From Candidatus Rokuibacteriota bacterium (GTDB taxonomy: Bacteria; Methylomirabilota; Methylomirabilia; Rokubacteriales; CSP1-6), in NCBI GenBank assembly GCA_003220225.1, contig QHRU01000045.1, positions 2,586 to 66,585 on the forward strand: a stretch of 64,000 nt of DNA, written 5' to 3'. The notes beneath the pieces are model-generated. The model worked only from the letters and a program-made list of their open reading frames with translations, was not told where the DNA came from and did no database searches. The translations under genes and the position numbers were made by a program. Positions 1 through 19,508 of the stretch are shown piece by piece (positions within the stretch are counted from its first letter, which is position 1; the number at the start of each line of letters is the position of its first letter).

Positions 1-643
1 GGCCGCCACCCGCGGGGAGATCGCCGTCCGCGACAGCCTCGCGGGCATGCAGCGGATCCGCGGCGAGGTGCAGGTCATCTCCAAGCGCATCAAGAGCCTC
101 GGCGACCGCTCGCTGGAGATCTCGGAGATCGTCAACACGATCGAGGAAATCGCGTCCCACACGAACCTGCTCGCGCTCAACGCGGCCATCGAGGCGGCGG
201 GCGCCGGCGAGTCGGGCGTCCGCTTCGCCGTCGTCGCCGACGAGATCCGCAAGCTCGCCGAGCGTGCGGCCAACGCCACCAAGGACATCGCCGCCCGCAT
301 CCGCGCCGTCCAGGGGGAGACCCAGGAGGCGGTGGTGGCCATGGAAGAGGGCACGCGCGAGGTCGAGTCGGGCTACAAGGTCACCATCCGCGCCGAGGAG
401 AGCCTGAAGGCGATCGCCGGCATCTCGAGGACGTCCGCGGAGCTGGCGCAGGAGATCTCGGCGTCCTCGCAGCAGCAAGTGCGCGGCGCCGACGGCGTGG
501 TGCGCGCGATGCGCTCCATCGCCGACGTGGCGGTGCACACGGAGCAGGCCGTGCTCCAGACGCGGCGCACGGTCGACGACCTGGTGAAACTGGCGGACGA
601 GCTCACGCGAAGCCTCTCGCGATTCAAGTTGGCGACGACCTGA
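1..643 (+). CDS. Methyl-accepting chemotaxis protein, C-terminal signalling domain (5' end outside window)
   Basis: The frame is open from position 2 with no upstream stop. The translation carries the MCP signalling-domain hallmarks ([11 protein letters not shown] ... [10 protein letters not shown]). Stop TGA at 641-643. Confidence 0.8.
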
Positions 644-650
644 GACGGCG

Positions 651-3371
651 ATGGCCGAGCCGGCCGAGCAGGAGTTCCTCCGCTCCATCTTCCTGATGGA
701 GGCGTGGGACACCGTGGCCGCGCTGGACTGCGCGGCGGCGACGCTGGCTCGCCCCGAGGGCGTGGACGAGCTGTTCGTCGTCACGCACCGCCTGAAGGGC
801 GCCGCCTCGCTGCACGGATTCCCGAACATCGCGGAGCTGGCGGCGGAGCTGGAAGAGGCGCTCGCCGGGCGCCCGCCCGACACGCGCAGGCTCGGCGCGC
901 TCGTGGGTCATCTCAAGCATGCGCTCGACGCGGCGGTCAACGCGCCGCCGGCCGCGGTCGGCGTTGCGACACCGGCGCCGAGAGCCGACGCGAGCCTCGA
1001 CCCCCTCCGCAAGGAGCTGGAGGCGTTCTTCGCGGGGAACGCGGACGTGATCGCGTACTTCCTGCCGGAGGCGACCGAGCACCTCGACGGGGTGACCTCG
1101 GCGCTCGGGGCGCTCGAGCGCGGCGTCGACGAGGCGGACGTCGCGCGGCTGTTCCGCGCCGTCCACACCCTGAAGGGCGCCGCCTACGTCGTCGGCTGCG
1201 TGCGAGTCGGCGAGGTCGCGCATCGCATGGAGGACGTGCTGGTGGTCGCGCGAGAGGGCCGCCGGCCGCTCACCCCCCGGGCCGTCGAGACCCTGTTCGC
1301 CGCCGAGGGCGCGCTACGCCTGATGCTCGGTCTGCCGCCCGACCCGCGCGCGAACGTCACCGACGTCGTGGCCGCGGTGCGCGCGCGGCTCGACGCGCTG
1401 TTGGACGGCGTGCCCGTGCCCGCCCCCGCGCCGCCGGCCGCGCCCTTCCCCGAGCCCGTGCCGGCGCTCTCGTCGTCGCTGGCGGCGCTGCTGAGCACGC
1501 CGCGCCCGGCGCCCGCCCGCGCCGCGCCGCGCCGCCCGCCGCGCCAGACGATCCGCGTCAACCTCGAGCGCCTCGACTCGCTGATGGACCTCATCGGCGA
1601 GATGGTGATCGACCGCGAGCGCGTGGACCAGCGCCTCGACGAGATCGACCGCGTCTCGGCCGCGCTCCTCGCGAGCCGCGGCCGCCTCGCCCAGTGCATC
1701 GCCGACTTCGAGCGGCGTCAGTTCGACCAGCGGCGTCCCGTGCCGCCCGCGAAGCCCGCGGCCGCCGCGACGGCCGGCCGCTCGGTCTCCGAGCTGTTCG
1801 CCGAGCTGGAGTTCGACCGCTACGACGACTCCGGGATCTTCGCGCGGACGGTGGCCGAGATCGCGGCCGACATCGCGGAGCTGCAGTCCGAGCTGACGGC
1901 GGTGACGCGCTCGCTCCGCGACGACATGGCGCACGTCCACCGGATCACCGGCGCGCTGCGAAGCGAGATCGGGCGCGCGCGGCTGGTGCCGATCGGCAGC
2001 CTCTTCGGCCGGTTCGTGCGCCAGGGGCAGGCGGCCGCGCGGGCGGCCGGCAAGAGCGTGCGCTTCGAGACGCGCGGCGAGGCCGTCGAGCTCGACACCG
2101 CGATCATCGAGCAGATCGTGGATCCGCTCCTGCATCTCGTGCAGAACACGATCGCGCACGGCATCGAGGCGCCCGACGAGCGGCGCGCGTGCGGCAAGGA
2201 AGCGGCGGGCACGGTGACGCTGTCGGCCGCGCACGAGGGCGGGGCCGTGCTGGTGGAGGTCGCGGACGACGGGCGCGGCATCGATCCGGACCTGGTGCGC
2301 CGGCGCGCGGTCGCGCAGGGCTTCGTGCCCGCCGACGCCGAGCTCGACGACGACCAGACGCTCGACCTCATCTTCCTGCCGGGCTTCAGCACGGCGAGCG
2401 CGGTCACGACGGCGGCGGGGCGCGGTGTCGGCATGGACGTCGTCCGCACGAACGTCCGGCGGCTCAACGGCGACGTGGAGGTGCGGAGCGTCGTGGGCGA
2501 GGGCACGCGCTTCACGCTGCGCCTGCCGCTCACGCTGCTGGTCTCCGAGGCGCTGATGATCACCGTCGCCGAGGAGCGGCTGGCGGTGCCGCTCAACGCC
2601 GTGCAGCTCGTCACGACGGTGCGGCCGGAGGACGTGCGGCCGGGCCCGCGCGGCGAGGCGATCCTCGTCGGCGAGGACCTCGTCGATCTCGTCCCCCTCC
2701 CGACCATCCTCGGTCTCGAGCGCGGGCCACGGCGGCCGCGCCGTCCCGTGCTCGTCGTGCGCGGCGCGGGCCGCACGCTCGCCGTCGAGGTGGACGAGAT
2801 CTTGCACAAGCAGGAAATCGTCATCAAGCCGCTCGGCGAGTTCCTGACGGGCGTCGGGCCGTACGGCGGCGCCAGCGTCGGCGCCGACGCGCGCGTCACG
2901 CTGCTGCTGGACCCCGGTGCGCTGGTCGAGACGGCGGCGCGCGCGAACGCGGTCACCCGGGCCGCGCGCCGCCGCGAGGCCGCCGCCGGCGAGGCGCCCG
3001 CCCCGCGCCGGCGCGTGCTGCTCGTCGACGACTCGGTCAGCGTGCGTCGATTCGTCGGCCAGATGCTCGAGAAAGCCGGCTTCGACGTCACCACGGCGGG
3101 CGACGGCGCCGACGCGATGGCCCGGCTGGCCGAGGCCGCCTTCGACGTCGTCGTCACCGACCTCGAGATGCCGCGCGTGAACGGCTACGAGCTGATCGAC
3201 GACGTGCGCCGCCGCCCCGCCACGCGCTCGCTGCCCGTGATCGTCCTCACCACGCGCGCGGGCGACAAGCACGTCGCGCTGGCGAAGAGCCTCGGCGTCC
3301 AGCACTACGTCACCAAGCCCGTCGAGGAGCACGCGTTCGTCACGCTCGTCGCCTCGCTGGTGCCGGCATGA
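651..3371 (+). CDS. CheA-type histidine kinase with two N-terminal Hpt (P1) domains and a C-terminal receiver (CheA-CheY hybrid, FrzE-like)
   Basis: Two Hpt motifs (HRLKGAASLHGF; HTLKGAAYVVGC), a P3 dimerisation segment, an HATPase_c region (DDGRGID ... GRGVGMDVV), a CheW-like P5 region, then a receiver (LLVDDSVSVR ... DLEMPRVNGYEL ... KP). Confidence 0.9.
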   Translation: MAEPAEQEFLRSIFLMEAWDTVAALDCAAATLARPEGVDELFVVTHRLKGAASLHGFPNIAELAAELEEALAGRPPDTRRLGALVGHLKHALDAAVNAPPAAVGVATPAPRADASLDPLRKELEAFFAGNADVIAYFLPEATEHLDGVTSALGALERGVDEADVARLFRAVHTLKGAAYVVGCVRVGEVAHRMEDVLVVAREGRRPLTPRAVETLFAAEGALRLMLGLPPDPRANVTDVVAAVRARLDALLDGVPVPAPAPPAAPFPEPVPALSSSLAALLSTPRPAPARAAPRRPPRQTIRVNLERLDSLMDLIGEMVIDRERVDQRLDEIDRVSAALLASRGRLAQCIADFERRQFDQRRPVPPAKPAAAATAGRSVSELFAELEFDRYDDSGIFARTVAEIAADIAELQSELTAVTRSLRDDMAHVHRITGALRSEIGRARLVPIGSLFGRFVRQGQAAARAAGKSVRFETRGEAVELDTAIIEQIVDPLLHLVQNTIAHGIEAPDERRACGKEAAGTVTLSAAHEGGAVLVEVADDGRGIDPDLVRRRAVAQGFVPADAELDDDQTLDLIFLPGFSTASAVTTAAGRGVGMDVVRTNVRRLNGDVEVRSVVGEGTRFTLRLPLTLLVSEALMITVAEERLAVPLNAVQLVTTVRPEDVRPGPRGEAILVGEDLVDLVPLPTILGLERGPRRPRRPVLVVRGAGRTLAVEVDEILHKQEIVIKPLGEFLTGVGPYGGASVGADARVTLLLDPGALVETAARANAVTRAARRREAAAGEAPAPRRRVLLVDDSVSVRRFVGQMLEKAGFDVTTAGDGADAMARLAEAAFDVVVTDLEMPRVNGYELIDDVRRRPATRSLPVIVLTTRAGDKHVALAKSLGVQHYVTKPVEEHAFVTLVASLVPA

Positions 3372-4393
3372 AGGCGCTGCTCGTCGATCCCGATCCGCAG
3401 CGCGCGCCTGTCCTCGCGGAGGCGCTCGATGCCGGCGGCGCCGAGGTCTCGATGGCGCTCAGCGCGTCGTTCGCGCTGACGATGCTCGAGTGGAACAAGC
3501 AGGACGTCATCATCAGCCGCGCCCGGCTCGGGGACATGGAGGGTCACGAGCTCTGCGCGATCGTCCGCAGCGATCCGTCCACCAAGGACGTGCGCTTCGT
3601 CCTCATCGTCGGGCCGGGAGAGAACGTGCCGACGCAGACGGCCGTCGCCGGCGTCGACCTCGTGCTGCCCGACGCGCTCAGCAGCGCCACGATCGTCACG
3701 CGCGTCATTCAGCTGGTGCGCAAGCAGCTCGAGGCGACCACGCCCTCGGCACCCGCCGCGGCCGTCCCGCGCGCCGCCGCGCCCGCGCCCGTGATCAAGC
3801 CGCCACGGGTCGCGCCGCCACCGCCGCCGCCTCCGAGGCCCGTCGCACCGCTGCCGCCGGCGCCGCCCCCAGTCGCCCCGCCGCCCCGGCCCCTCGCCCC
3901 GCCGCCGCGGCCCGTCATCCCGGCGCCGCAGCCGGTCGCCCCCGCAGCGCCCGTCGCGCCGGTGCCGGTCGTCGCCCAGGCCGCGCCCGTCCCCGCGGCG
4001 CCCGGGCCCTCGATGGCCGGGCTCGATTCCGTCGGGACGAACGGCGGGACGCGCACGTTCCAGGGCGCGCTCGGCGTGCTGGAGATCGAGGAGCTCACGC
4101 AGGCGATCTCGGTCGGCGGCAAGACGGGGCGGCTGGTGCTCGTCCTCGCCACCGGCGGCGGCCTCGTCGTGTTCGAGAGTGGGCGCGTGACGCACGCGGA
4201 GTTCGGCGGGCTCGGTGGTGAGCCGGCCTTCTCCGCGCTCGTCGCGGCCTCGCACCGCGAGCGCGGCGGCAAGTTCTGCTTCATCCCGGTCCATCCGAAT
4301 GAGCTGCGGACCCAGCCGAAGACCATCGCTCGCCCCGTCGACCAGCTGCTGCTCGACGTGGCGAGGATGATGGACGAGGAGAAACGCGCATGA
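3368..4393 (+). CDS. Atypical receiver domain - Pro-rich linker - DUF4388-like C-terminal domain protein
   Basis: ATG at 3368 overlaps the CheA stop (ATGA). The N-terminus is receiver-like (MKALLVDPD...) but the canonical phospho-Asp/Thr/Lys positions look degenerate. A long PPPPAP-type linker follows, then a C-terminal block (LEIEELTQAISVGGKTGRLVL ... GRVTHAEFGG ... GGKFCF) that resembles DUF4388. Confidence 0.6.
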   Translation: MKALLVDPDPQRAPVLAEALDAGGAEVSMALSASFALTMLEWNKQDVIISRARLGDMEGHELCAIVRSDPSTKDVRFVLIVGPGENVPTQTAVAGVDLVLPDALSSATIVTRVIQLVRKQLEATTPSAPAAAVPRAAAPAPVIKPPRVAPPPPPPPRPVAPLPPAPPPVAPPPRPLAPPPRPVIPAPQPVAPAAPVAPVPVVAQAAPVPAAPGPSMAGLDSVGTNGGTRTFQGALGVLEIEELTQAISVGGKTGRLVLVLATGGGLVVFESGRVTHAEFGGLGGEPAFSALVAASHRERGGKFCFIPVHPNELRTQPKTIARPVDQLLLDVARMMDEEKRA

Positions 4394-5199
4394 CCAAGGT
4401 GCTGGTGGTCGACGACAGCCTCAGCGTGCGGAAGGTCGTCGAGCGCGCGCTGGCGGGCCGGCAGATCGACGTCGTGTGCGCGGCCTCCGGCAGCGAGGCG
4501 CTCGAGCGGCTCGAGCGTGATGCCCCGGACTTCGTGGTGTGCGACGTGGTGATGCCCGACCGCGACGGCTACGAGATCTGCGAGTTCATCAAGGGCCACC
4601 CGCGCCTCGCGCACACGCCGGTCCTGCTGATGTCCGGCATCGTCAACGACGAGGTCCGCGAGCGCGCCGCGCGCGCGCAGTCGGTGGGCATCCTCGCCAA
4701 GCCCTTCGCCGCCGACGACCTCATCCGCCACCTCGACGGCCTGCTGGCGCAGCGCCCCGCGGCGTCCGCCAAGGCCCCGGCGGCCCGGGGAACCCCGGCG
4801 ACCGTGGAGACCGATACGCCGGTGCCGCTTGACACGACGCCCGTCCCCGACGGGGCCGCCGCCGTGGTCGCCCAGTTCCTCACGATGGATGGCGTGCAGT
4901 GGGCCGTCCTCGCGGACCGCGAGGGCTTCGTGGTCGAGGCGACGGCAAACGCGGGCGTGGACGCGGACGTGGCGGCCGCGCTCAGCGCCTGCCTCGCCGA
5001 GTCGTCCGACGGCCTCGGCCGCGAGCTGGGTCGTGGCGCGCTCCAGGGCGTCATCCTCGAGTACGAGAAGGGCATGGTCGTGCTCTACGGCGTGGCGACC
5101 ACGGGGCTCCTCGCCGTGGGCATCGCCGAGCCGAACGTGCTCGGCAAGGTCCGTTACTATGCGCGGCGGGCGCTGCCCGAGCTGGCGCGGGCGATGTGA
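4390..5199 (+). CDS. CheY-like response regulator fused to a C-terminal roadblock/LC7 domain
   Basis: ATGA overlap with the upstream gene. Canonical receiver (VLVVDDS ... VVCDVVMPDRDGYE ... LLMSG ... AKPF), a linker, then ~110 aa with roadblock-like alternating hydrophobic beta-alpha-beta pattern (QWAVLADREGFVVE ... GVILEYEKGMVVLYGV). Confidence 0.75.
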   Translation: MTKVLVVDDSLSVRKVVERALAGRQIDVVCAASGSEALERLERDAPDFVVCDVVMPDRDGYEICEFIKGHPRLAHTPVLLMSGIVNDEVRERAARAQSVGILAKPFAADDLIRHLDGLLAQRPAASAKAPAARGTPATVETDTPVPLDTTPVPDGAAAVVAQFLTMDGVQWAVLADREGFVVEATANAGVDADVAAALSACLAESSDGLGRELGRGALQGVILEYEKGMVVLYGVATTGLLAVGIAEPNVLGKVRYYARRALPELARAM

Positions 5200-5200
5200 C

Positions 5201-7231
5201 GTGGGCCGCTACCGCCTGTCGCCGCTGATGCGATGGCTCCACGCGCTGGGCGTCGTGGTCGCCTACGTCGTGGTGACGGGCGTGCTGTTCTGGTTGGACC
5301 TCGGCGACGGCGGTGTGGCGCCGGCGTGGACGATCGTCGCGGTGCCGTTCTTCTACGCCGTGCTCTCGCTCCTGTTCCTGCGCCGCGGGTCCCTCGCCCG
5401 CCGCCTGAGCTGGGTCGGCGGCGCCTGCCTGACGCACGTGACCCTCGGCCTCACCGCCGCCGCGGCCTTCGCGACGCTGGCGGACCTGACGACGCTGTCC
5501 GCGCTCGCGTACGCCTTCGCGCGGCTCGGACCCGCGCCGTTCCTGACGCTGGTCGCGACGCCGCTCGTGCTGGCGCCGTTCCGGGGGCGGGTGCTCTCGC
5601 CGCGCCCGGCGCCGCGCGGGGACCGCGCGCGCCAGCGGGTCGTCGTCACGCCGACGACGCCCGTCGAGACTCCGGTCGCGCGTGATGCACGCCGCCACGA
5701 GGACCCCGCCGAGGCCGCGACGCCGGTGCCTGCGGTGAAACCGTCGGCCGCGGCGCCCGAGACGCCCGAGTGGCAGGAGTCGCCCGAGTCGCCGCCAGAT
5801 GACGCCGTGGTGCGGGTGCGGTTCGAGCGCGTCGCGGCTCAGCTTCCCGCCGCCGCGTTCACGCTGCCGATGGACCGCGTCGCCGAGAGCCTGCGCGAGC
5901 CGCACTGGCTCACCGTGCCCCGGCGCGTCGTGCTCGCGCAGCTGCCGGAGGGCGCGGTGCAGGTGCACTGGGCGATCGTCGCGTCGCAGTTTCCGGCGCT
6001 CGCGTTCGCCATGTCGGACGTGGAGTTCCGGGGGCAGTACCCCAACCTGAAGCTGACGCTGCCGCTCGACGACGTCCTGCGCCAGCTGCCGCCCGGGGTG
6101 ATCCCGACCGGCTGGACGCCGAGCCAGATCGCGGGGCTCGAGGCCTTTCCGGCGCCGTTCCAGCCGCTCCCGGTGCCGCGCGACGTGCCGGCCGCGAGCG
6201 CGCGCCCCGGGGGCGCCGCGGCGGACCTTCCGCCGGCCGTCGCGGCCGCGCCGCCGCGCCGCACGCCACCGCCGCCGCCCGCTCCCGTCGCGCCGCCACG
6301 CCTCGCACCGCCGCCGCCCGCTCCGGTCGCGGCGCCGCCACGCGATCCCGTCGCGGAGTCGCTGAGGTCCGCCCCGGCCGCGCCGACGATCACGCCGCCA
6401 CCGGCGCCGGCGATCGTCACCTCCGCGCCGCCGCTGCCGATTCCACCGACACGCGTCGCCGCGCGGGCGCCCGCGCCGCCGCGCGAGGTCGCGCCCGAGG
6501 TGATCAGCCGCGACGCGCTCACACGTCTCGCCGCCTGCCTCGCGGGCGCGGGGACGTTCGAGTCGTGGTCGGGCGTCGTGGAGAGCGTGCCGCTGGTGGC
6601 GTTCGTGGCCCCGACGCTGCCGCGCGAGGCCGTGACCGCCGTGGCCGCGCGCGTCGCCGGACTGCTCGGCGCCGCCGCGGGCGAGCAGGTGACCGTGCGC
6701 ACCGCGCGCGCGGCGATCGTCGTGAGCGCGGCGCCCACGCCGGTGGTCGTCGGCGCGCGGCGGCCGGGCGCGCCCGTGGCCTTGCTCGAGCTGCGCGCCG
6801 CGCGCGCGGCGGGGCTGATCGGCCGCGCGGGCGAGGGCGTCACGCCGCCGTCACGCGCGCTGTCCGCGCTCGCCGTCGAGCCGCGCGTCGCCGGCGTGGC
6901 GGGGACCCTGGAGGCCTTCGGCGACCTCGAGCCGGCCGTGCTGACCGACGCCGCCGGCGTCGCCCGCGTCTACGTCTTCCGCGAGCCCGGCCACGAGGCG
7001 GAGCGCCTCGGCGAGCTCGCGCTGGCGGTGTGGGACGGCCTTGGGCGCACGCGCGACGCCGACCTCGGCGCGCTCGTGTCGGTCATCTTCCGCCAGGGAC
7101 GGCGGCGCATTCTCGTGCGCCCGCTCGCCGGGCGCGGGACGACGCTGCTCGCGGCGGCGGGACCGGTGGCGCGGCCCGGGCGCGCGTGGCGCGAGGCCGA
7201 CCGCGCGGCGGCGGCACTGGAGGCGCGCTGA
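5201..7231 (+). CDS. Polytopic membrane protein with long Pro/Ala-rich low-complexity region and internal repeats (function unknown)
   Basis: GTG at 5201 (or ATG at 5228) lies 2 nt after the upstream stop. There are 4-5 predicted TM helices at the N-terminus. Two ~45-aa repeats follow (VRVRFERVAAQLPAAAF ... / VQVHWAIVASQFPALAF ...). Then PPPPAPVAPP tracts and a C-terminal ~250 aa with two roadblock-like segments (weak). Confidence 0.5.
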   Translation: MGRYRLSPLMRWLHALGVVVAYVVVTGVLFWLDLGDGGVAPAWTIVAVPFFYAVLSLLFLRRGSLARRLSWVGGACLTHVTLGLTAAAAFATLADLTTLSALAYAFARLGPAPFLTLVATPLVLAPFRGRVLSPRPAPRGDRARQRVVVTPTTPVETPVARDARRHEDPAEAATPVPAVKPSAAAPETPEWQESPESPPDDAVVRVRFERVAAQLPAAAFTLPMDRVAESLREPHWLTVPRRVVLAQLPEGAVQVHWAIVASQFPALAFAMSDVEFRGQYPNLKLTLPLDDVLRQLPPGVIPTGWTPSQIAGLEAFPAPFQPLPVPRDVPAASARPGGAAADLPPAVAAAPPRRTPPPPPAPVAPPRLAPPPPAPVAAPPRDPVAESLRSAPAAPTITPPPAPAIVTSAPPLPIPPTRVAARAPAPPREVAPEVISRDALTRLAACLAGAGTFESWSGVVESVPLVAFVAPTLPREAVTAVAARVAGLLGAAAGEQVTVRTARAAIVVSAAPTPVVVGARRPGAPVALLELRAARAAGLIGRAGEGVTPPSRALSALAVEPRVAGVAGTLEAFGDLEPAVLTDAAGVARVYVFREPGHEAERLGELALAVWDGLGRTRDADLGALVSVIFRQGRRRILVRPLAGRGTTLLAAAGPVARPGRAWREADRAAAALEAR

Positions 7232-7840
7232 ATGTCCATCATCAACTACGCCGCCAAGGTCATCAACTTCAAGCTCGTCTACTACGGGCCCGGCATGGCG
7301 GGGAAGACGGCGAACCTCCAGTTCGTCCACCGCTGCCTGCCCGACGACAACCGCGGCAACATGATCTCGCTGGCGACGGGCGACGACCGCACGCTCTTCT
7401 TCGACTTCCTGCCCGTGTCCGCGACGAGCGTGCGGGGCTTCACGACGAAGTTCCAGCTCTACACGGTGCCCGGCCAGAGCCGCTACAACATGACGCGCAA
7501 GCTGGTGCTGCGCGGCGTCGACGGCGTGGTGTTCGTGGCCGACTCGCAGTGGGACCGGCTGAAGGAGAACGTCGAGAGCCTCCGCAACCTCAACGACAAC
7601 CTGCGCGAGTATCGCCTCGACCTCGCCACGGTGCCGTACGTCGTCCAGTACAACAAGCGGGACCTGCCCGACGTGGCGCCGATCGACTACCTCGAGTACA
7701 CGCTCAACCGCGGCACGCGCCGGGTGCCGGCGTTCGAGGGGGTGGCGGTGACGGGCAAGGGGGTCTTCGACACGCTGAACACGCTGTCCCGGATGGTCCT
7801 CCTCCGGGAGTTCGGTCAGGTACAGGAAGGAGCCTCGTGA
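7232..7840 (+). CDS. mglA: MglA-type Ras-like small GTPase
   Basis: P-loop YYGPGMAGKT, a switch region with the intrinsic Arg (DRTLFFDFLP), YTVPGQ, and NKRD. The protein is 202 aa and collinear with Myxococcus MglA. Confidence 0.9.
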   Translation: MSIINYAAKVINFKLVYYGPGMAGKTANLQFVHRCLPDDNRGNMISLATGDDRTLFFDFLPVSATSVRGFTTKFQLYTVPGQSRYNMTRKLVLRGVDGVVFVADSQWDRLKENVESLRNLNDNLREYRLDLATVPYVVQYNKRDLPDVAPIDYLEYTLNRGTRRVPAFEGVAVTGKGVFDTLNTLSRMVLLREFGQVQEGAS

Positions 7841-8322
7841 TGCGACACGACCTCGTCATCCACGAAACCGACGCGGCGCGGATCGACGCCGTGCTGGAGC
7901 GGTTTCTCGGCGACTCGAGCAGCGCGGCCGTGCTGCTGATCGATCGCAGCGGCGAGCCCCTCGCGATCGCGGGGGCGGCGCGCACGCTCGACACCGTCTC
8001 CATCGCCGCCCTCGCCGCCGGCGCCTTCAGCTCGACGGCGGCGCTCGCCCGGCTGCTGGGCGAGAGCGAGTTCTCGGTGCTCTTCCACGAGGGCCTGAAG
8101 GAGAGCCTGCACGTCAGCACCGTGGACGACGACGCGATCCTGCTCGCCATCTTCGACGAGCGGACCACCGTCGGCATGGTGCGACTGTTCGCGCGCGACG
8201 CCAGCCAGGGCCTCGGCGCGATCCTCGTCGAGGCCCGTCGGCGGCCGCGCCGCACGGGTGTCCTGGCCGCGCCGCTGACCCCGGAGGAAGCGCGGAGTGC
8301 GATCCGGCAGCGGCCCGCGTAA
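7840..8322 (+). CDS. mglB: MglB-type roadblock/LC7 protein (putative GAP of MglA)
   Basis: ATG at 7840 overlaps the mglA stop (TGATG). The protein is 160 aa with a roadblock fold pattern (AVLLIDRSGEPLAIAG ... SVLFHEG ... ILLAIFDE). Confidence 0.8.
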   Translation: MRHDLVIHETDAARIDAVLERFLGDSSSAAVLLIDRSGEPLAIAGAARTLDTVSIAALAAGAFSSTAALARLLGESEFSVLFHEGLKESLHVSTVDDDAILLAIFDERTTVGMVRLFARDASQGLGAILVEARRRPRRTGVLAAPLTPEEARSAIRQRPA

Positions 8323-10531
8323 CGGCGCCGACGAGCGCGAGCTCCGCGACAGCGCCGAGATGTTCGAGGCGGCGCTCGCGGAGAACCCCGCGGACCTGAC
8401 CGTGCTGGAGGCGCTCCGAGAGATCTACACGCGGCTCGGCGACATCGAGCGCCTGATGGAGACCGCCGAGCGCATCGAGCGCGTCGATCCCGATCAGGGC
8501 GCGCTCGGCGGGGGCCGTCCTCGTGCCGTCGACCCGACGCCAGCGGCGCCCATCGTCCCCGCCGCGCCGCCACGCGCGCCCGCGCGGCCGTCGATCGGCC
8601 CCGCCGTGCCGCCGCCCGCACCCGCGCGGCCGTCCATCACTTCCCCCGTGCCGCCGCCCGCACCCGCGCGGCCATCCAGCGCCCCACCGTCGATCATCAC
8701 GCCGCCGTCCCTCGTCACGGCGCCGAGCACGCCCGTCCGACTCGCCAACGCCATGCCGGCAGCGCGCTTGCCAGCATTCGAGCCGGGCAAGGCCGGCGGC
8801 GTGTCGCCGGTCCGCAAGCGCGGGAGCCGCGCGCGCATCGGCGAGCTCCTCGTCGCCGAGGGCGTGATCTCGCAGGACCAGCTCCACGAGGCGCTCCGCG
8901 AGCACCGCCGCTCGAAGGAGCGGCTCGGCTCCGTGCTGGCGCGCCGCGGCCTCGTCACCGAGGAGCGGCTGGTGGAGGTGCTCTCGAAGGAGCACGGCCT
9001 GCCGTCGGTGGACGTCCGCCAGCAGCCGGTGCCCGCGGAGATCCTGGCCCTGGTGCCCGGACACCTCGCGCGCAAGTACGAGGTGCTGCCGCTCTCGCGC
9101 GTGGACGGCGCGCTCACCCTCGCCATGTCGGACCCGACCAACGTCGTGGCCATGGACGAGATCGCCGCCACCACGCGGCTCACGGTGCTGCCGGTGGTCG
9201 CCGTCGGCGCCGCCATCCGCGCCGCGATCGAGACGCACTACGCGAAGCCGGTGATCACCTCGGGGATGGACGACGTCCTCTCCGAGCTGACCGACGCCAC
9301 CGTGGAGGTCGTCTCCGACGAGGATTCGCGGTCGACGGGCGAGGTCGTCGAGCTGCGCGACGCGGCCGACGGCGCGCCGGTGGTCAAGTTCGTGAACAAG
9401 GTGATGCTCGACGCGATCAGGCGCGGCGCCTCCGACCTGCACTGGGAGCCGTACGAGAAGGTGTTCCGCATCCGGTTCCGCATCGACGGCGTCATGCATG
9501 AGATGGTGTCGCCGCCCAAGAAGGTGGAGGCGGCGGTGATCTCGCGGCTGAAGATCATGGCCAACCTCGACATCTCGGAGCGGCGCCTGCCTCAGGACGG
9601 ACGCATCAAGCTGCGCCACGGCTCGCGCGAGATCGACTTCCGCGTGTCGATCCTGCCGACGATCTTCGGCGAGAAAGCCGTGCTCCGCATCCTCGACAAG
9701 GAGTCGCTGCAGCTCGACCTCACCAAGCTCGGCTTCGATCAGTGGAGCTTCGAGAAGTTCACCGACGCGATCCACCAGCCGTACGGCATGGTCCTGATCA
9801 CGGGGCCGACGGGCTCGGGCAAGACGACCACGCTCTACTCGGCGATCTCGACGATCAACAAGGTCGACCACAACATCATGACCGCCGAGGACCCGGTCGA
9901 GTACAACCTCAAGGGTGTCAACCAGGTGCAGGTGAACGACGGGATCGGCCGGACGTTCGCGGCCGTCCTGCGCTCCTTCCTGCGCCAGGACCCGGACGTC
10001 ATCCTCGTCGGCGAGACGCGCGACCTCGAGACCGCGCAGATCTCCGTCCGCGCGGCGCTCACGGGCCACCTCGTCTTCACGACCCTGCACACGAACGACT
10101 GCCCGTCGACGGTGGCGCGGCTGGTCGACATGGGCGTCCAGCCGTTCCTGCTCTCCTCGGCGCTGCTGCTGATGCTGGCCCAACGGCTGGGCCGGCGGAT
10201 CTGCAAGGAGTGCAAGCAGCCGGTGGAAGGCAGGGAAGAAGACCTCGTGCGCTACGGCCACGTGCCGCAGGGGCGCGGCCCCGTGATGTTCTACCGCGGC
10301 GCCGGCTGCGCGACGTGCAACTTCACCGGGATGAAGGGCCGGGTGGCGATCTACGAGGTGATGCCGATCAGCGAGACCATCCGCGACATGATCCTCGAGG
10401 ACGCCTCGACCGCGGTGCTCCGCGAGCAGGCGCAGAAGGAAGGCATGAAGACGCTGCGCCAGGCGGGCATGGCCAAGGTGCTGGAGGGCGTGACGACCGT
10501 GGAAGAGGTCGTGCGCGTGACGCTCGCATGA
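8297..10531 (+). CDS. PilB/GspE/MshE-family secretion ATPase with N-terminal extension and MshEN-type T2SSE_N domain
   Basis: Walker A GPTGSGKTTTLYS, Asp and His boxes, and a C-terminal tetracysteine (CKECK ... CATCNFTG). The T2SSE_N region carries two 24-aa motifs (RIGELLVAEGVISQDQLHEALREH and RLGSVLARRGLVTEERLVEVLSKE) separated by a 5-aa spacer. A ~170-aa N-terminal extension has an alpha-helical part and a Pro-rich part. Confidence 0.85.
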   Translation: MRSGSGPRNGADERELRDSAEMFEAALAENPADLTVLEALREIYTRLGDIERLMETAERIERVDPDQGALGGGRPRAVDPTPAAPIVPAAPPRAPARPSIGPAVPPPAPARPSITSPVPPPAPARPSSAPPSIITPPSLVTAPSTPVRLANAMPAARLPAFEPGKAGGVSPVRKRGSRARIGELLVAEGVISQDQLHEALREHRRSKERLGSVLARRGLVTEERLVEVLSKEHGLPSVDVRQQPVPAEILALVPGHLARKYEVLPLSRVDGALTLAMSDPTNVVAMDEIAATTRLTVLPVVAVGAAIRAAIETHYAKPVITSGMDDVLSELTDATVEVVSDEDSRSTGEVVELRDAADGAPVVKFVNKVMLDAIRRGASDLHWEPYEKVFRIRFRIDGVMHEMVSPPKKVEAAVISRLKIMANLDISERRLPQDGRIKLRHGSREIDFRVSILPTIFGEKAVLRILDKESLQLDLTKLGFDQWSFEKFTDAIHQPYGMVLITGPTGSGKTTTLYSAISTINKVDHNIMTAEDPVEYNLKGVNQVQVNDGIGRTFAAVLRSFLRQDPDVILVGETRDLETAQISVRAALTGHLVFTTLHTNDCPSTVARLVDMGVQPFLLSSALLLMLAQRLGRRICKECKQPVEGREEDLVRYGHVPQGRGPVMFYRGAGCATCNFTGMKGRVAIYEVMPISETIRDMILEDASTAVLREQAQKEGMKTLRQAGMAKVLEGVTTVEEVVRVTLA

Positions 10532-10544
10532 GGGCAGGGGCGTC

Positions 10545-11384
10545 GTGAGGTTGTGGGCGTCGCGCGGCGGGCGCGAGCCGCAGACGGTACCGGAGGCGCT
10601 CCGGCGCGCGGAGCAGCGGCGGCGCGAGGGCCGTGATGCCGAGGCGGCGGCGCTCGTGGCGCGCGTGCTCGAGCTCGATCCCGACAACCTCCACGCGCAC
10701 CTGCTCGCCGCCTACTTGCACGTCGCGCGCCGCGCCACCGCGCCCGCGAGGCAGGAGTTCCGCTGGGTGCTGGGACACGACGCCAACCACGCGCGCGCCC
10801 TGCTCGGGCTCGCGGGCATCGCGCTCGAGGAGGGCGACGCGCACGAGTGCCGCGACTTGCTGCGGCGCGCGCTGCGCTTCTATCCCGAATTCCCCGAGGC
10901 GACCGCGCTGTTGGAGGCCGTTCGGACGCGCGAAGCGGCGCCGCCGCCGGCGGCGAACGCAACCGCGGCGCCGCGCGTGGACCGGCTGCGGCTGCCGGGC
11001 ACGGGCCGCGCGCTGATCATCGGACGCGCCGACGGCGGGCTGATCGCGTCGCAGCCCGTGGCCGACGACGCCAAGGACGTCTCGGAGGCGCTGGCCCGCA
11101 CGCTGCAGCTGGCGGCGGCCACGCTCGGGCGCGCCGGCCTGGGCCCGCTCCACCGTGCCATCGTCGAGGACGACCACGACGCCGTCTTCACGCGCACCGA
11201 CGGCGATCTCGTCGTCTCGCTCGCACTGCCGCGCGCGACCGATCCGACCCAAGGGCTGCTCGACCTGAATCGACTGTGGTCCGCCACGCTGCACGAACTG
11301 GGATTGGCCGCCGGGCCGCCGGCCGCTGCGCCCTCTTCCACGCCGGCTGACACGCCGGTCGACCGGACCAGGAGGGTTTCATGA
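10545..11384 (+). CDS. TPR-repeat protein fused to a C-terminal roadblock-like domain
   Basis: GTG start at 10545, 14 nt after the ATPase stop. N-terminal TPR-like helices (DAEAAALVARVLELDPDNLHAHLLAAYLHV ...). C-terminal ~110 aa is roadblock-like (GRALIIGRADGGLIASQ ... AIVEDDHDAVFTRTDGDLVVSLAL). Confidence 0.55.
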   Translation: MRLWASRGGREPQTVPEALRRAEQRRREGRDAEAAALVARVLELDPDNLHAHLLAAYLHVARRATAPARQEFRWVLGHDANHARALLGLAGIALEEGDAHECRDLLRRALRFYPEFPEATALLEAVRTREAAPPPAANATAAPRVDRLRLPGTGRALIIGRADGGLIASQPVADDAKDVSEALARTLQLAAATLGRAGLGPLHRAIVEDDHDAVFTRTDGDLVVSLALPRATDPTQGLLDLNRLWSATLHELGLAAGPPAAAPSSTPADTPVDRTRRVS

Positions 11385-11800
11385 GCGGACCACGCCTCAA
11401 GCTCGCGCTCGAGTACGACAGCACCTCGCGGGGCCGCCACGTGCGGGACATCGTCTCGGAGCTGAAGCGGCAGCACTGGGTGCGCGGCGCCCTCATCGTC
11501 GCGGCGGACGGCTTCGTCATCGCCGCCGAGCTGCCCGGCACGATCGAGGTCGATTCCATGGCGGCGCTCGCCGCCACCCTCGGCCGCGAGCTGGAGACGA
11601 GCGCGCAGCGTCTGGGGCGGCCGTCGTTCTGCACCGCCCTGTTCTCGGCCGACGACGGGACGATGTTCCTGGCCGCCAGCCGCATCGGCTATCTGGTGGT
11701 CCTCGCCGAGCAGCAGGTGAACGTGCAGGCCATCCGCGGCGCCCTCGCCGAGGCCGTGTCGCTGATCGACGCCGCATGGGCGGGCGAGGCGGCGGGCTAG
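11381..11800 (+). CDS. Stand-alone roadblock/LC7 domain protein
   Basis: ATGA overlap with the upstream gene. The protein is 139 aa with the pattern WVRGALIVAADGFVIAAELPG ... GTMFLAASRIGYLVVLAE. Stop TAG at 11798-11800. Confidence 0.65.
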   Translation: MSGPRLKLALEYDSTSRGRHVRDIVSELKRQHWVRGALIVAADGFVIAAELPGTIEVDSMAALAATLGRELETSAQRLGRPSFCTALFSADDGTMFLAASRIGYLVVLAEQQVNVQAIRGALAEAVSLIDAAWAGEAAG

Positions 11801-11853
11801 AACCTCGGAGGGGGCCTGGAACCTCGGAGGGGGCCTGGACGGCCCCCTCCGAT
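11801..11853. terminator. Tandem 19-nt duplication ending in a perfect 12-bp stem / 5-nt loop hairpin between convergent genes
   Basis: aacctcggagggggcctgg occurs at 11801-11819 and 11820-11838. tcggagggggcc (11824-11835) pairs perfectly with ggccccctccga (11841-11852). There is no U-run. Confidence 0.4.
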
Positions 11854-11873
11854 GCCTACGGGATAACGAGGGC

Positions 11874-11940
11874 CGCCACGGCTGCGCCGGGGCGGCCCGA
11901 GCGCTTGGGGGGTATGGGGGGCCATGTCGGGGCCCCCCAT
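11874..11940. repeat. REP/MITE-like palindromic intergenic element, copy A (tail + hairpin orientation)
   Basis: gccacggctgcgccggggcggcccgagcgcttggggggtatggggggccatgtcggggcccccca. It is homologous to copies at 23105, 30396, 32013 and 51372. Confidence 0.6.
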
Positions 11941-11943
11941 TTA

Positions 11944-12661
11944 CTAGACGGCCGCGGCGGCGATTTCCGAGAGGATGGCGGCCGCCGCCGCCCTGGGATC
12001 CGGCACGGCGGTGATCGGACGGCCGACCACGATCGCGTCGGCGCCCGCCCTGATCGCATCGGCCGGCGTCGCGACGCGCTTTTGATCGTCGACGCGCTCG
12101 GCGGGCCGGATCCCGGGCGTGACGATCACCCACCGCGGGCCCAGCGCGCGTCGCAGGAGCCGGATCTCCTGCGGGGAGGCCACGCAGCCGTCGAGCCCGG
12201 CCTCGCGCGCGCGCTCGGCGAGCCGCAGCACGTGCGCCTCCACGTTGGCGACGACCCCGACCTCCTCGAGGCCCTTGCGGTCGAGGCTCGTCAGCACCGT
12301 CACGCCGAGGCAGATCGGCCGCGCGACGCCGAAGTCCTTCGCCGCCTTGCCCGCGGCCTCCGCGGCCGCCCGCATCATCGCGCCGCCGCCGCCGGCGTGG
12401 ACGTCGAGCATCGCCACCCCGATGCGCGTCGCCTCGCGCACGGCGCCGGCGACGGTGTTCGGGATGTCGTGAAATTTCAGATCGAGGAACACGGGGAACC
12501 CGCGCTTGAGCGCGGTCTCGACGGCGGCGGGCCCGGCGGCCGTGAACAGCTGCGAGCCGATCTTGGCGCCCATCGTCTCGGGCGGTCCGGCCCCGGCCAG
12601 CCGCTCGAGGAGCCCGTCGGCCTCCTTCAGCGTCTCCACGTCGAGGGCGACCCAGAGCCGC

Positions 12662-12669
<8 letters not shown>
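11944..12669 (-). CDS. pyrF: Orotidine 5'-phosphate decarboxylase
   Basis: Translation motifs [10 protein letters not shown] and IVGRPI. The protein is 241 aa. Confidence 0.85.
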
Positions 12670-15865
<3,196 letters not shown>

Positions 15866-15868
15866 CCG

Positions 15869-16135
15869 CTACTCTTCCACCAGCCCGTAGACGATCGAGG
15901 TGTCCGGCGCCGCCTCCTCACGCTTGTAGAGGACATCATCGATGCGGCCCGCTCCGACCCAGACCACCTGGCTGTCTCCCCACAGCTGCTCGCCCAGCAC
16001 GCTCATGCGGCGCTCGACGCGCTCCTTGATCGCGTGCGCCTCCAGCGAGGCCTCGCTCTGCGTGGTGAACGACGCCCACTCGGGCTTCTGTCCTGCGCTC
16101 TCGACCTTGCGGTACGAGATCAAGTATTTGGGCAT
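15869..16135 (-). CDS. Small hypothetical protein (88 aa) encoded between carA and carB
   Basis: ATG at 16135 lies 7 nt downstream of the carA stop. A GGAGG Shine-Dalgarno sits 10 nt upstream, embedded in the carA 3' end. The stop lies 4 nt before the carB start. G+C is lower than its neighbours. Confidence 0.4.
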   Translation of the reverse strand: MPKYLISYRKVESAGQKPEWASFTTQSEASLEAHAIKERVERRMSVLGEQLWGDSQVVWVGAGRIDDVLYKREEAAPDTSIVYGLVEE

Positions 16136-16141
16136 GGAAGA

Positions 16142-17272
16142 TCAGCCTCCTTCCATCAGATCCGTGAAGCGGTGGAACAGGTAGTTCGCGTCGTGCGGAC
16201 CCGGCGAGGCCTCGGGATGGTACTGCACGCAGAACACGGGCAGCTCCGCGTGGCGCAGGCCCTCACACGTTCCATCGTTGAGGTTGACGTGGGACGGCTC
16301 CCAGCCGCGGCCGGCGAGCGACGCCGGGTCGACGGCGAAGCCGTGGTTCTGCGAGGTGATCTCCACGCGCCCGGTCGCGAGGTCGCGCACCGGATGGTTG
16401 GCGCCGTGGTGGCCGAACGGCAGCTTGTACGTGCGGCCGCCGGCGGCGAGCCCGATGATCTGGTGACCGAGGCAGATGCCGAAGACGGGCACGCGCCCGA
16501 GCAGCGCGCGCACGCTGTCGATCAAGTACGGCACGCCTTCCGGATCGCCGGGGCCGTTCGAGAGAAACACGCCGTGGGGCTTGCGCTCCAGCACGGCCTC
16601 GGCCGGCGTGCCGGCCGGAACGACCGTGACGTCGCAGCCGGCCGTGCGGAGCTGGCGCAGGATGTTGAACTTGATGCCCGCGTCGAAGGCGACGACGTTG
16701 AAGCGCGCGGGCGGCGGCGGGCGATAGCCCTTCGCGAGATCCCACTCGCCCGTCTTCCACGTGAACGGCTCCGCCGCCGTCACCTCGGCCACGAGGTCGC
16801 GGCCCACCAGCCCGGGCAGCGCTCGCGCCTTGTCGCGCAGGCGGTCGACGTCGAGATCGGCGGACGAGATGATGCCGTCCTGCGCGCCCGCATCGCGCAG
16901 GTGGCGCGTCAGCGCGCGCGTGTCGATGCCCTGCAGCCCGACGAGGCCGTGCGTCTTCAGATAGGCGTCGAGGCTCACGCGGCCGCGCCACGACGAGGGG
17001 CAGACGGAGGCCTCCTTGACGATCAGGCCGTTCGCCCACGGCCGGTGCGACTCCACGTCTTCCTCGTTGAGGCCGTAGTTGCCGATCATCGGATAGGTCA
17101 TGGTCACGATCTGCCCGCGATACGACGGATCCGTGAGGATCTCCTGGTAGCCGGACATGGCCGTGTTGAAGATGACCTCGCCGTCGGTCTCCCCCACGGC
17201 GCCGAGCGCGCGGCCGCGGAAGACGCGCCCGTCGCGCAGCACGAGCACGGCCTCCCTCATTTCGGCGGGCAT
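16142..17272 (-). CDS. carA: Carbamoyl-phosphate synthase small subunit (glutamine amidotransferase)
   Basis: The internal start [15 protein letters not shown] was chosen; the ORF-track frame extends further upstream. The translation has a GATase class I region (GICLGHQ ... HGANHPV). Confidence 0.9.
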
Positions 17273-18567
17273 TCCCACACGACCTTTCCGGCCACGATCG
17301 TCTTCCACGGCCGGCCCGTCGCCGCCCAGCCCGCGAACGGCGTGTTGCGGCTCTTCGACTTGAACCGCGCGGGATCGATCGTCACCGCGCCGTCGGGATC
17401 GATCAGCGTCAGGTCGGCCGGCGCGCCGGCGCCCAGACTGCCGCCCGGCAGGCGCAGCAGCCGCGCGGGGTCCCTCGACAGGCGTGACACCAGGGTGGCC
17501 ACGGAGAGCCGGCCCGGCCTCACGAGCCGATCGATGAGCACGGTGACGGCGGTTTCCAGCCCGACGACGCCGTTGGCGGCGTGATCGAACTCGCCTTCCT
17601 TCTCGCTCAGCGCGTGGGGCGCGTGATCGGTGGCCACGCAGTCGATGGTGCCGTCGACGAGCGCCTCGAGCAGCGCCTCCGCGTCGCGCGTGCTCCGCAG
17701 CGGCGGCGCCATCTTCGTGTTCGCATCCCACGAGCGCACCGCGTCTTCGGTGAGGAGCAGGTGATGCGGCGTGACTTCCGCCGTCACGCGCACCCCGCGC
17801 GCCTTCGCGTCGCGCACGAGCCGGACGGCTCCCGCCGTCGAGAGGTGCGCGATGTGCACGTGAGCGCCCGTCAGCTCCGCCAACAGGAGATCGCGCGCCA
17901 CCATCACGTCCTCGGCCGCGGCGGGGATGCCCTGCAGGCCGAGCTCGGTGGACACGACGCCCTCGTGCATGCTGCCGGCGTGCGCGAGCGTATGGTCCTC
18001 GGCGTGGCTGATGACCGGCGCCCCGAAGGGCAGGGTGTACTCCATGGCGCGGCGGTAGAGCTCGGCGTTCATCACGCACTTCCCGTCATCGGAGAAGGCC
18101 ACGCAACCCGCCTCGGCCAGCTCCGCCAGCTCCGCCAGCTCCTTGCCCTCGAGCCCGCGCGTGACCGCGCCGATCGGGTACACGCGCACCACGCCCTCGC
18201 TCTCCGCTTTCGCGCGGATGTAGTCGGTCACGGCGCGGTTGTCGTTCACGGGCTGCGTGTTGGCCATGCAGCAGACGGCCGTGAAGCCGCCCGCCGCCGC
18301 CGCGCGGGTGCCGCTGGCGATCGTCTCCTTGTACTCGTGGCCGGGCTCGCGCAGGTGCACGTGCATGTCGATGAAGCCGGGGCACACCCACATGCCGGCG
18401 GCGTCGATCACCGCGGCGCCCTGGGGCACCGCGAGCTTGGCGCCCACGCGCGCGATCTTGCCGTTCTCGACCAGCACGTCCTGGACGCCGTCCACCGAGC
18501 CGGCGGGATCGATCACGCGCCCACCGCGGATCAGCAGCGTCATCGGGAGATGCCTCTCCGGGGTCAT
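17257..18567 (-). CDS. pyrC: Dihydroorotase
   Basis: The protein is 436 aa with the motifs [10 protein letters not shown] and VATDHAPH. Confidence 0.9.
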
Positions 18568-19508
18568 TGGGCCTGCGCCTCCCCGCTCCGGCCGCCGGCG
18601 AGCAGCAGGAGCACCGCCATGCGCACCGCCACACCCTTGGAGACCTGGTCGAGGATCACCGAGTACGGCCCGTCGGCGACTTCCGGCGACAGCTCGACGC
18701 CACGATTCACGGGTCCGGGATGCATGATCAGCACGTCGGGCCGCGCGTGGGCGGCGAGCCGGTCGAGCGTGAGGCCCCAGTAGCGCGAATACTCGCGCAG
18801 CGACGGGATGAGGCCGGCATGCATCCGCTCCTGTTGCAGGCGCAGCATCATGATCACGTCCACGTCACGGATCGCGTCCTCCAGCCGGTAGCTGACCTTG
18901 CAGCCGAGCTCCTGCGCGTAGGGCGGGATCAGCGTCGGCGGCCCCGCCACCGTGACGGTCATGCCCAGCTTCTTCATGCCGTGGATGTTGGAGCGCGCGA
19001 CCCGGCTGTGCGCGATGTCGCCGACGATGGCCACGCTGAGCCCCTCGAAGTGGCCCTTCTTCTCGCGGATCGTCAGCAGGTCGAGGAGCGCTTGGGTGGG
19101 ATGCTCGTGAGCGCCGTCGCCCGCGTTGACGATCGAGCAGGACAGCTCGCGCGCGAGCAGGGCGGGCGCGCCCGAGGACGAGTGCCGCACCACGACCACG
19201 TCGGGGCTCATGGCCGCGATGTTGCGCGCGGTGTCCACGAACGACTCGCCCTTGGCCGCGCTGGAGCCCGTCGCGGAGAAGTTGATGACGTCGGCCGACA
19301 GCCACTTGCCCGCGATCTCGAACGACGTCCGCGTGCGCGTGGAGTTCTCGTAGAACAGGTTCACCACGGTCTTGCCGCGCAGCGCGGGGACCTTCTTGAT
19401 CTCGCGCGTGGCGATCTCCTGCAGCGAGGCCGCCGTGTCCACGAGCGTGAGGATCTCGGCCGCCTCCAGCTCGCGAATGGTCAGGAGATCCTTGCGGGTC
19501 CAGCCCAT
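18564..19508 (-). CDS. pyrB: Aspartate carbamoyltransferase catalytic subunit
   Basis: Motifs STRTR and HPTQ. The protein is 314 aa. Confidence 0.9.

Follow-up and report, generated by a model that had tools for sequence, protein, structure and literature searches.

The window, a stretch of 64,000 nucleotides of contig QHRU01000045.1 from a Candidatus Rokuibacteriota bacterium, starts with ten consecutive genes on the plus strand. In the translation of the window these run from base 2 to base 11800, and they bring together chemosensory genes, the MglA/MglB GTPase switch, several roadblock proteins and a type IV pilus extension ATPase. The preferred reading, to which we give a probability of roughly 0.6, is that this is a conserved Rokubacterial operon which links a chemosensory pathway directly to the MglA/MglB switch and to the pilus extension motor, and which thereby sets where or when pili are made.

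The genes are labelled g1 to g10 in 5' to 3' order. They encode a methyl-accepting chemotaxis protein (MCP, g1), a CheA kinase with two Hpt domains and a receiver (REC) domain, a REC-like domain joined to a PATAN domain, a REC domain joined to a roadblock domain, a 676-aa protein (g5), MglA, MglB, a PilB-type ATPase, a TPR protein with a roadblock domain, and finally a stand-alone roadblock protein (g10). The gene order, the junctions, the domain and fold identities, the catalytic and phospho-acceptor residues and the conservation of the cluster are observed.

Gene order, junctions and the extent of the operon

The strong evidence that these genes form a unit is a gene order that is conserved across species, and not the packing of the genes. 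For this comparison the 80 best loci for the MglA of g6 were taken from a species-representative genome set, and all ten proteins were searched against these loci. The MglA matches at 69-95% identity all belong to metagenome-assembled genomes (MAGs) of Candidatus Rokubacteria/Methylomirabilota, bar a few MAGs labelled otherwise. An origin in Myxococcota, to which the high GC content and the presence of MglA had pointed, is rejected on this basis, since the nearest MglA loci (70-95% identity) are from Rokubacteria/Methylomirabilota. Over this whole range of identities, MCP-CheA-g3-g4-g5-MglA-MglB is found in the same order and on the same strand in all 20 Rokubacteria loci that have enough flanking sequence. 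Eight further, incomplete loci are consistent with this order, and only one (L028, 67% identity) does not have it. An earlier first-pass annotation had proposed the ten-gene operon from the letters of this one stretch; the gene-neighbourhood search finds that the part from MCP to MglB recurs in about 25 Rokubacteria species.

Downstream of mglB the relatives vary. PilB follows directly after MglB in about 19 loci, and is absent at this position in about 8 related species, which means it is not obligatory in the cluster. In locus L026, a gene with a NERD (nuclease-related) domain (11089-11856) comes after mglB, where PilB sits elsewhere. Only the closest relatives have g9 and g10 on the same strand; many others keep the two genes adjacent but inverted. 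The g5/MglA, MglA/MglB and MglB/PilB junctions range from -26 to +24 nt in relatives, with one exception of +61 in L003. The overlap of -26 between mglB and pilB is kept in the three closest relatives, and more distant ones have a gap of +17 to +24.

Within the window, all ten genes overlap or lie at most 13 nt apart. The junctions listed in the first-pass annotation are all where it placed them: ATGA at 3368-3371 and 4390-4393, TGACGTG at 5197-5203, TGAATG at 7229-7234, TGATG at 7838-7842, a 26-nt overlap at 8297-8322, and ATGA at 11381-11384. Two further gaps measure 7 nt (643/651) and 13 nt (10531/10545). The window has a GC content of about 73%. Between base 2 and base 11800, a third-position GC of 0.84-0.99 picks out a single plus-strand coding frame at each point, and the frame changes exactly at the junctions.

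Tight junctions are usual in this DNA. Of the same-strand junctions elsewhere in the window, 67% measure 14 nt or less, and at most 6 of them occur in a row. Nine tight junctions in a row then have a p of about 0.03, assuming independent junctions. Given how common such junctions are in this genome, packing alone is weak evidence for an operon, and its use as proof was downgraded after this in-window baseline.

The baseline also favours the idea that the genes are neighbours only. In that case a compact high-GC genome would simply have two or three ordinary operons (che; g5-mglAB; pilB-g9-g10) lying head to tail, and the variation among relatives in the presence of PilB and the orientation of g9 and g10 would fit as well. 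This is nevertheless judged quite unlikely. The order from MCP to MglB is invariant in the 20 loci described above, and domains cross the supposed boundaries: there is a roadblock domain on a Che-type receiver, PATAN (a PilB binder) is in the che part, and roadblocks occur on both sides of the GTPase.

The MCP frame is open from base 2 and its gene is truncated where the window begins, which makes ten genes a lower bound. An exact look-up of the CheA protein, meant to yield more upstream DNA, found no record of it, and the upstream context is therefore that of orthologous loci. In relatives, a gene for a Peripla_BP_6 binding protein is found immediately upstream of the MCP (L002, 1-1287; L026, 41-1366; L015, 2-436), overlapping it by 4 nt in L026 and separated from it by about 10 nt in L002. 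Because of this, the operon probably extends leftwards past the window, where a gene for a periplasmic binding protein would come first and bring the total to eleven. The arrangement suggests a binding-protein-assisted receptor. The coupled ten-gene operon that was first proposed stands in its order, junctions and domains, and is corrected to at least ten genes.

At the other end there is a candidate transcript end on the plus strand, a GC-rich 12-bp hairpin at 11824-11852, 24 nt after the last stop codon. Two tandem copies of a 19-nt unit, AACCTCGGAGGGGGCCTGG, directly follow the last stop (11801-11852) and lead into the hairpin, whose 5' arm is formed by the second copy. The RNA fold of 11798-11860 has an energy of -34.4 kcal/mol. 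A scan of 11700-12100 for consensus promoters and terminators gave no match, for the terminator because the hairpin has no T tract. Downstream of 11800 the genes are convergent and on the minus strand, starting with pyrF and carB. Together, the hairpin and these pyrimidine genes place the end of the unit at 11800. A second hairpin, at about 11914-11942 and followed by ATTT, adjoins the stop codon of the convergent pyrF.

Two further kinds of locus were retrieved. An unclassified MAG (locus L072) has the order TPR protein, unknown, roadblock, MglA, MglB, PilB, PilT, PilC, PilS. Chthoniobacterales genomes have PilB, a large protein, MglA and MglB. In one of these (L036), a 978-aa protein directly upstream of mglA contains a region that matches the MID domain of g5, described below, with an hhalign E of 8e-5, as well as a weak C-terminal roadblock match. 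The association of MglA/MglB with PilB and roadblock proteins thus extends beyond Rokubacteria. Within the set of retrieved loci, its fusion with a Che pathway is confined to this phylum.

The open reading frame (ORF) that contains MglA in L072 (10001-11236) is 411 aa long as read; its GTPase domain spans residues 13-185, and an extension adds about 220 aa. This ORF lies between the roadblock gene and mglB-pilB-pilT-pilC-pilS, and could be a true fusion or an artefact of ORF calling.

The encoded proteins

The GTPase is g6 (7232-7840), a single-domain MglA of 202 aa with full-length similarity to solved MglA structures. Its residues 1-195 match T. thermophilus MglA (3t12_A) with E=9.9e-69 and M. 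xanthus MglA (6h17_A) with E=1.8e-66. The P-loop GPGMAGKT (19-26), TVPGQ (78-82) and NKRD (141-144) stand at Myxococcus numbering. The arginine finger R53 comes just before the G2 threonine T54 (DRTLFFDF from residue 52), and aligns to R53 of Thermus and Myxococcus MglA. An intrinsic arginine finger, and TVPGQ instead of DxxGQ, are among the published criteria for group-1 MglA (Wuichet & Sogaard-Andersen 2015, PMC4316618). By its residues g6 can thus be classed as a group-1 MglA, and the MglA-like label it was first given is borne out by R53, T78-VPGQ82 and NKRD141-144.

The next gene, g7 (7840-8322), encodes an MglB roadblock protein (Robl_LC7, 39.5 bits), a candidate GTPase-activating protein (GAP) of MglA. 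It matches M. xanthus MglB (6h5b_B) with E=1.1e-26. The start of g7 overlaps the mglA stop codon, where GTG at 7837 is an alternative to ATG at 7840.

The chemosensory part begins with g1, of which the window holds the C-terminal signalling domain (2-643; Pfam MCPsignal, E=1.4e-36). Full-length orthologues of about 590 aa (L002, L026) have sCache_3_2, HAMP and MCPsignal domains, and to judge by these the receptor would be of the transmembrane sCache type.

Gene g2 (651-3371) encodes a hybrid CheA of 906 aa, composed of two Hpt domains, a dimerisation domain, an HATPase, a CheW-like domain and a REC domain. The corresponding Pfam matches are Hpt (two stretches), H-kinase_dim, HATPase_c, CheW and Response_reg, and the NCBIfam CheA models reach E=1e-93, which is under the equivalog cut-off. 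In the translation both Hpt domains have HxxKG, and the REC residues are the canonical DD/D/T/K.

Two different receiver proteins follow. The first, g3 (3368-4393), consists of a REC-like domain, a Pro/Ala-rich linker with 38% Pro and a C-terminal PATAN domain (DUF4388). Where the PATAN domain is clear (PF14332, residues 232-339, 42.8 bits against a cut-off of 25), the Pfam Response_reg match of 24.7 bits is under its cut-off of 30.2. When g3 and its 24 Rokubacteria orthologues are aligned with CheY, every one of them has R, Y or G at the D57 position, and K109 is lost too. Because both residues are gone in all orthologues, g3 is best read as a pseudo-receiver-PATAN protein.

The second, g4 (4390-5199), is a canonical receiver (Response_reg, 84 bits) fused to a roadblock/LC7 domain (Robl_LC7, 37.8 bits with a cut-off of 23). 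Aligned with CheY, this receiver retains DD, D52, S and K. Its C-terminal domain matches Thermus MglB in a search of PDB sequences (E=4e-5). In hhalign comparisons, its roadblock profile matches MglB with E=4e-6 and g10, its paralogue, with E=4e-17. With the receiver of g4 canonical and that of g3 dead, g4 is the likely phosphorylation target; g4 and the kinase's own receiver both appear plausible in this role. A homologue search with g4 yielded close Rokubacterial orthologues only, and is therefore uninformative on REC-roadblock fusions elsewhere.

Some relatives have a fuller set of chemosensory genes. Loci L009, L019 and L020 carry MCP-CheR-CheA-CheB-CheW ahead of g3, g4 and so on (501-5476 in L020). 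This argues for a real chemosensory pathway, which some lineages have in full, adaptation enzymes included, and which is streamlined here. CheR, CheB and CheW were either lost in the lineage of the window or never present in it.

Between the receivers and MglA lies g5 (5201-7231), a membrane-anchored protein of 676 aa. It has four transmembrane (TM) helices, a Pro-rich linker, a novel repeat domain here called MID, another Pro-rich linker and, at the C-terminus, a tandem pair of roadblock-like domains. Neither g5 nor its pieces have a Pfam or NCBIfam match, and its homologues are all labelled 'hypothetical' and are without a Pfam domain.

An AlphaFold2 model of g5, based on 65 homologues, has a predicted local distance difference test score (pLDDT) of 77 overall and of over 90 in the folded parts. 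The model starts with an N-terminal helical bundle and a disordered Pro-rich linker. After this come a compact domain of two beta-alpha-alpha-beta units (residues 203-296) and the second Pro-rich linker. The C-terminal part (6509-7225) is modelled as two consecutive alpha-beta-beta-alpha-beta-beta-beta-alpha modules, at residues 437-540 and 554-675. LAMTOR2/3 (p14/MP1) is among the top structural matches of both g5 and g9.

MID (residues 197-325, 5789-6175) is the most conserved part of g5, with R205, P216, F220, G251, W257 and Q263 invariant. It is also rare, as a search for it gave only 171 clusters among 1.84 billion representative proteins. Full-length members of the family have a TM anchor, then one to four MID copies, and then two roadblock-like modules. 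The MID profile found nothing significant in PDB, the sole match being the cytoplasmic domain of GspL with E=0.99. GspL binds the secretion ATPase GspE. Eight distant proteins of the MID family had no match in Pfam. Some distant members (P0386, P0409, P0414) measure 1,600-2,550 aa and contain between 4 and 18 MID-like stretches, again without a Pfam domain. In all, g5 is a new and rare family of MglA-associated proteins.

The last two genes encode further roadblock proteins. In g9 (10545-11384), a TPR region (residues 15-131) is followed by a divergent roadblock domain (residues 156-251), while g10 (11381-11800) is a roadblock/LC7 domain on its own (Robl_LC7, 34.7 bits) that matches Asgard roadblock structures with E=8e-5 in the search of PDB sequences. 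The fold alpha-beta-beta-alpha-beta-beta-beta(-alpha), similar to that of solved roadblocks, is present at the C-terminus of g4, at the C-terminus of g9, in g10 and in the C-terminal pair of g5. All three segments that had been proposed as roadblocks from the letters alone (4390-5199, 10545-11384 and 11381-11800) score as such. The original count of at least four roadblock domains was correct as a minimum; it is now six, to which g5 contributes a tandem pair. The idea that g4 and g10 are of the MglC rather than the MglB type found no support, since their matches were to generic, Asgard and Thermus MglB roadblocks.

This leaves g8 (8297-10531), the type IVa pilus extension ATPase PilB, which here is longer at the N-terminus by an extra stretch of about 170 aa. 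Its residues 168-744 align to residues 13-586 of 5tsg_B with E=2.3e-191. The Pfam matches are T2SSE and MshEN (residues 233-317), and an MshEN-type motif for binding cyclic di-GMP (c-di-GMP) is found at residues 180-231 (8834-8989; NCBIfam NF053729, 65.2 bits with a cut-off of 38).

MshE and some GspE proteins also have MshEN and the c-di-GMP motif, and there are no adjacent pilus structural genes. The ATPase might on these grounds drive a non-pilus machine, type II secretion-like or MSHA-like, with MglA regulating secretion. We hold this to be highly improbable, given that g8 passes the equivalog cut-off for PilB (TIGR02538 type_IV_pilB, 717.1 bits against 675.65) and fails that for GspE (TIGR02533, 590.1 against 630.25). 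The best PDB matches are also full-length PilB, from Geobacter and Myxococcus, with E around 1e-190, compared to 1e-123 for GspE. The NCBIfam cut-offs exclude MshE and GspE as the identity of g8, which narrows the earlier 'MshE/PilB-type' wording to PilB proper.

The N-terminal extension of g8 is conserved in 15 orthologues. It consists of a weak TPR-like hairpin (TPR_19, E=0.0019, under the cut-off) and a linker with 30% Pro. The presumed start is GTG at 8297, with GGAGG at -14. Pro/Ala-rich low-complexity linkers of 22-38% Pro occur in g3, g5 and g8 (3728-4042, 5597-5800, 6101-6496 and 8507-8806). These may be either an effect of the GC-rich genome or a sign of shared function, for example polar targeting as in RomR.

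Proposed working of the module

In the preferred reading, the transmembrane sCache receptor would sense a periplasmic ligand, possibly with the help of the periplasmic binding protein that is encoded just upstream in relatives. The receptor would control the hybrid CheA, and phosphorylated CheA would pass its phosphate to the canonical receiver of g4. This would alter how the g4 roadblock pairs with MglB, with the g9/g10 pair and with membrane-anchored g5. The balance of MglA GTP hydrolysis, its nucleotide state or its recruitment to the membrane would then shift. MglA-GTP would activate or position PilB, possibly helped by the PATAN domain of g3 and by the TPR elements found in g9 and in the N-terminal extension of PilB. 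The outcome would be pili assembled at a chosen site or time. A second input, c-di-GMP, could enter via the MshEN motif of PilB. Every contact between the proteins, their co-transcription, the way in which regulation runs and the output of the cell are inferred from the genes described above.

Several observations weigh against this reading, starting with the two already mentioned, the commonness of tight junctions and the non-obligatory place of PilB in the cluster. This copy of the locus also has no separate CheW, CheR or CheB. The NCBIfam equivalog for Thermus-type MglB, NF052242, is a narrow model, and g7 scores 73.9 bits where its cut-off is 200. Which roadblock protein would act as GAP, as guanine nucleotide exchange factor (GEF) or as scaffold is unreadable from sequence. 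Finally, the annotated genes of the window include no pilT, pilC, pilin or pilMNOPQ. With none of these nearby, the module is not fully self-contained, contrary to its description in the first-pass annotation.

The lack of a nearby retraction ATPase gene, pilT, would also fit the same wiring with an output other than surface motility. The pili could serve adhesion, DNA uptake, cell-cell contact or predation, or the module could drive some other polarised process of which PilB is one client. About 8 related species have kept MCP to MglB without PilB in the cluster, and in Bdellovibrio, MglA controls prey invasion and not motility (PMC3983030). Such an output is considered unlikely. Where their role is known, group-1 MglA, MglB, PATAN and PilB proteins converge on positioning type IV pili for movement, and in L072 the genes pilB-pilT-pilC-pilS directly adjoin the same module.

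A more specific version of the preferred reading may be put forward tentatively. In this version, g4 and the g5 family would together make up a roadblock platform that is tethered to the membrane and gated by phosphorylation. Such a platform would be a counterpart of Ragulator in prokaryotes, and MglA could be loaded, held or switched off on it. CheA would then gate a Ras-like GTPase directly via a roadblock domain. In Myxococcus, this link from kinase to GTPase needs the separate proteins FrzX/FrzZ, RomR/RomX and MglC. MID would serve as a new type of adaptor domain, perhaps for binding the pilus motor; the non-significant match to the ATPase-binding GspL is no more than a lead in this direction.

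The remainder of the window contains other genes. On the minus strand, 11944-20035 holds a complete pyrimidine operon, pyrR-pyrB-pyrC-carA-carB-pyrF, with junctions that are 2-8 nt or overlapping. Between carA and carB it includes an 88-aa ORF (15869-16135) without a Pfam match. More signalling genes are found at 20164-23102 and 26202-29788. Among them, a hybrid kinase of the PAS-HisKA-HATPase-REC type has an unknown partner of 166 aa, a receiver at 22737-23102 is divergent and stands alone, and a kinase resembling NtrY forms a pair with a sigma-54 regulator of the NtrX/NtrC kind. At 23209-26123 on the minus strand, a gene for AllG, a subunit of oxamate carbamoyltransferase, overlaps a gene with a CoA-ligase domain, which is reminiscent of the allantoin/oxamate pathway.

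Comparison with known systems

Decades of Myxococcus genetics have linked a chemosensory pathway, MglA/MglB, roadblock paralogues, receiver adaptors, TPR effectors and the pilus motor, and the direct contacts between these are still debated. Here a distant, uncultured phylum has the same network in one conserved gene string. The telling fusions are receiver with roadblock, TPR with roadblock, tandem roadblocks on a membrane anchor, PATAN with a dead receiver, and PilB with an extra N-terminal module. Every such fusion or adjacency is a specific and testable prediction of direct contact. The link from chemosensing to a small GTPase to the pilus motor would then not be a myxobacterial peculiarity, and the compact ten-gene set suits biochemical reconstitution.

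The chemosensory part was initially called Frz-like. The Frz cluster of M. xanthus has a cytoplasmic receptor (FrzCD), a dual-receiver protein (FrzZ), two CheW proteins, CheR and CheB. The label fits the CheA-CheY fusion kinase, which is FrzE-like, but not the rest, as the receptor is transmembrane by its orthologues and there is no FrzZ here, Pfam showing no dual-REC protein and no separate CheW, CheR or CheB in the window. The order MCP-CheR-CheA-CheB-CheW in relatives is that of pilJ-pilK-chpA-chpB-chpC in Pil-Chp, and not the Frz order. The chemosensory part resembles Pil-Chp more than Frz.

The polarity module of M. xanthus, taken together with Frz and SgmX/FrzS, nevertheless resembles the locus in many ways. 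Both have a group-1 MglA (R53/TVPGQ), a cognate MglB, extra roadblock paralogues, a CheA-REC kinase, receiver adaptors, a pseudo-receiver protein (similar in idea to FrzS), TPR partners, Pro-rich linkers and, here as the presumed output, extension of type IV pili. In M. xanthus, MglA with the TPR protein SgmX stimulates type IV pili, and Frz acts on MglA/MglB.

The differences are that the order here is mglA-mglB where Myxococcus has mglB-mglA, that a receiver is fused directly to a roadblock domain, that the receptor is of the transmembrane kind, and that there is a membrane-anchored protein with tandem roadblocks. The phylum, Methylomirabilota, is another one as well. No homologues of RomR, RomX or FrzZ were seen in this operon. 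In Myxococcus and Bdellovibrio, mglA is not near the genes of its partners, which are dispersed (PMC4316618). The first-pass annotation describes the mglBA, frz and pilus genes of Myxococcus as unlinked; here the genes form one string.

The Pil-Chp system of P. aeruginosa, a chemosensory pathway of the TFP class, shares the transmembrane MCP (here known from orthologues), a CheA with more than one Hpt domain and a receiver in cis, and two response-regulator outputs. In Pseudomonas these outputs control the polarity of PilB, and the system operates without an Mgl module (PMC12632253). Unlike the locus described here, it has no MglA/MglB or roadblock proteins, and its outputs are the single-domain CheY proteins PilG and PilH, with FimV, FimL and FimX. 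Conversely, CheW, CheR and CheB are missing from the copy here.

The cyanobacterial Tax/Pix systems with PatA-type (PATAN-REC) regulators likewise combine a chemosensory operon with a PATAN regulator. In Synechocystis, PATAN domains bind the N-terminal domain of PilB1 as well as PilC, and the same work describes a recurrent neighbourhood of MglA/MglB with PATAN, and a PATAN protein of M. xanthus, SgnC (bioRxiv 10.1101/2021.06.11.447907). In g3, however, the domain order is reversed, with the REC-like domain before PATAN, and the receiver has no phospho-acceptor. The cyanobacterial operons are also without MglA/MglB. Neighbourhoods of group-1 MglA vary, occasionally with PATAN genes, and fusions of REC with a roadblock domain (Robl) exist (PMC4316618).

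The Streptomyces conservon has a histidine kinase (CvnA), a roadblock protein (CvnB), CvnC and an MglA-family GTPase (CvnD), and so also holds kinase, roadblock and GTPase in a single operon (PMC4316618). It differs in its group-2 GTPase, its classical membrane kinase, its single roadblock and its developmental output, and it has no CheA or MCP and no PilB.

The likeness to the eukaryotic Ragulator (LAMTOR)-Rag system is one of fold and logic only. It consists of several pairing roadblock domains, a membrane tether and the scaffolding or regulation of a small GTPase. The anchor here is an integral segment of four TM helices, where Ragulator uses lipidation, and the homology seen is confined to the roadblock fold.

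In the literature searched, neither a che-mglAB-pilB operon nor any Mgl protein from Rokubacteria was found described, which is no proof of absence. Across all these comparisons, the parts are individually known, and what is new is their combination, the fusions and the g5 family.

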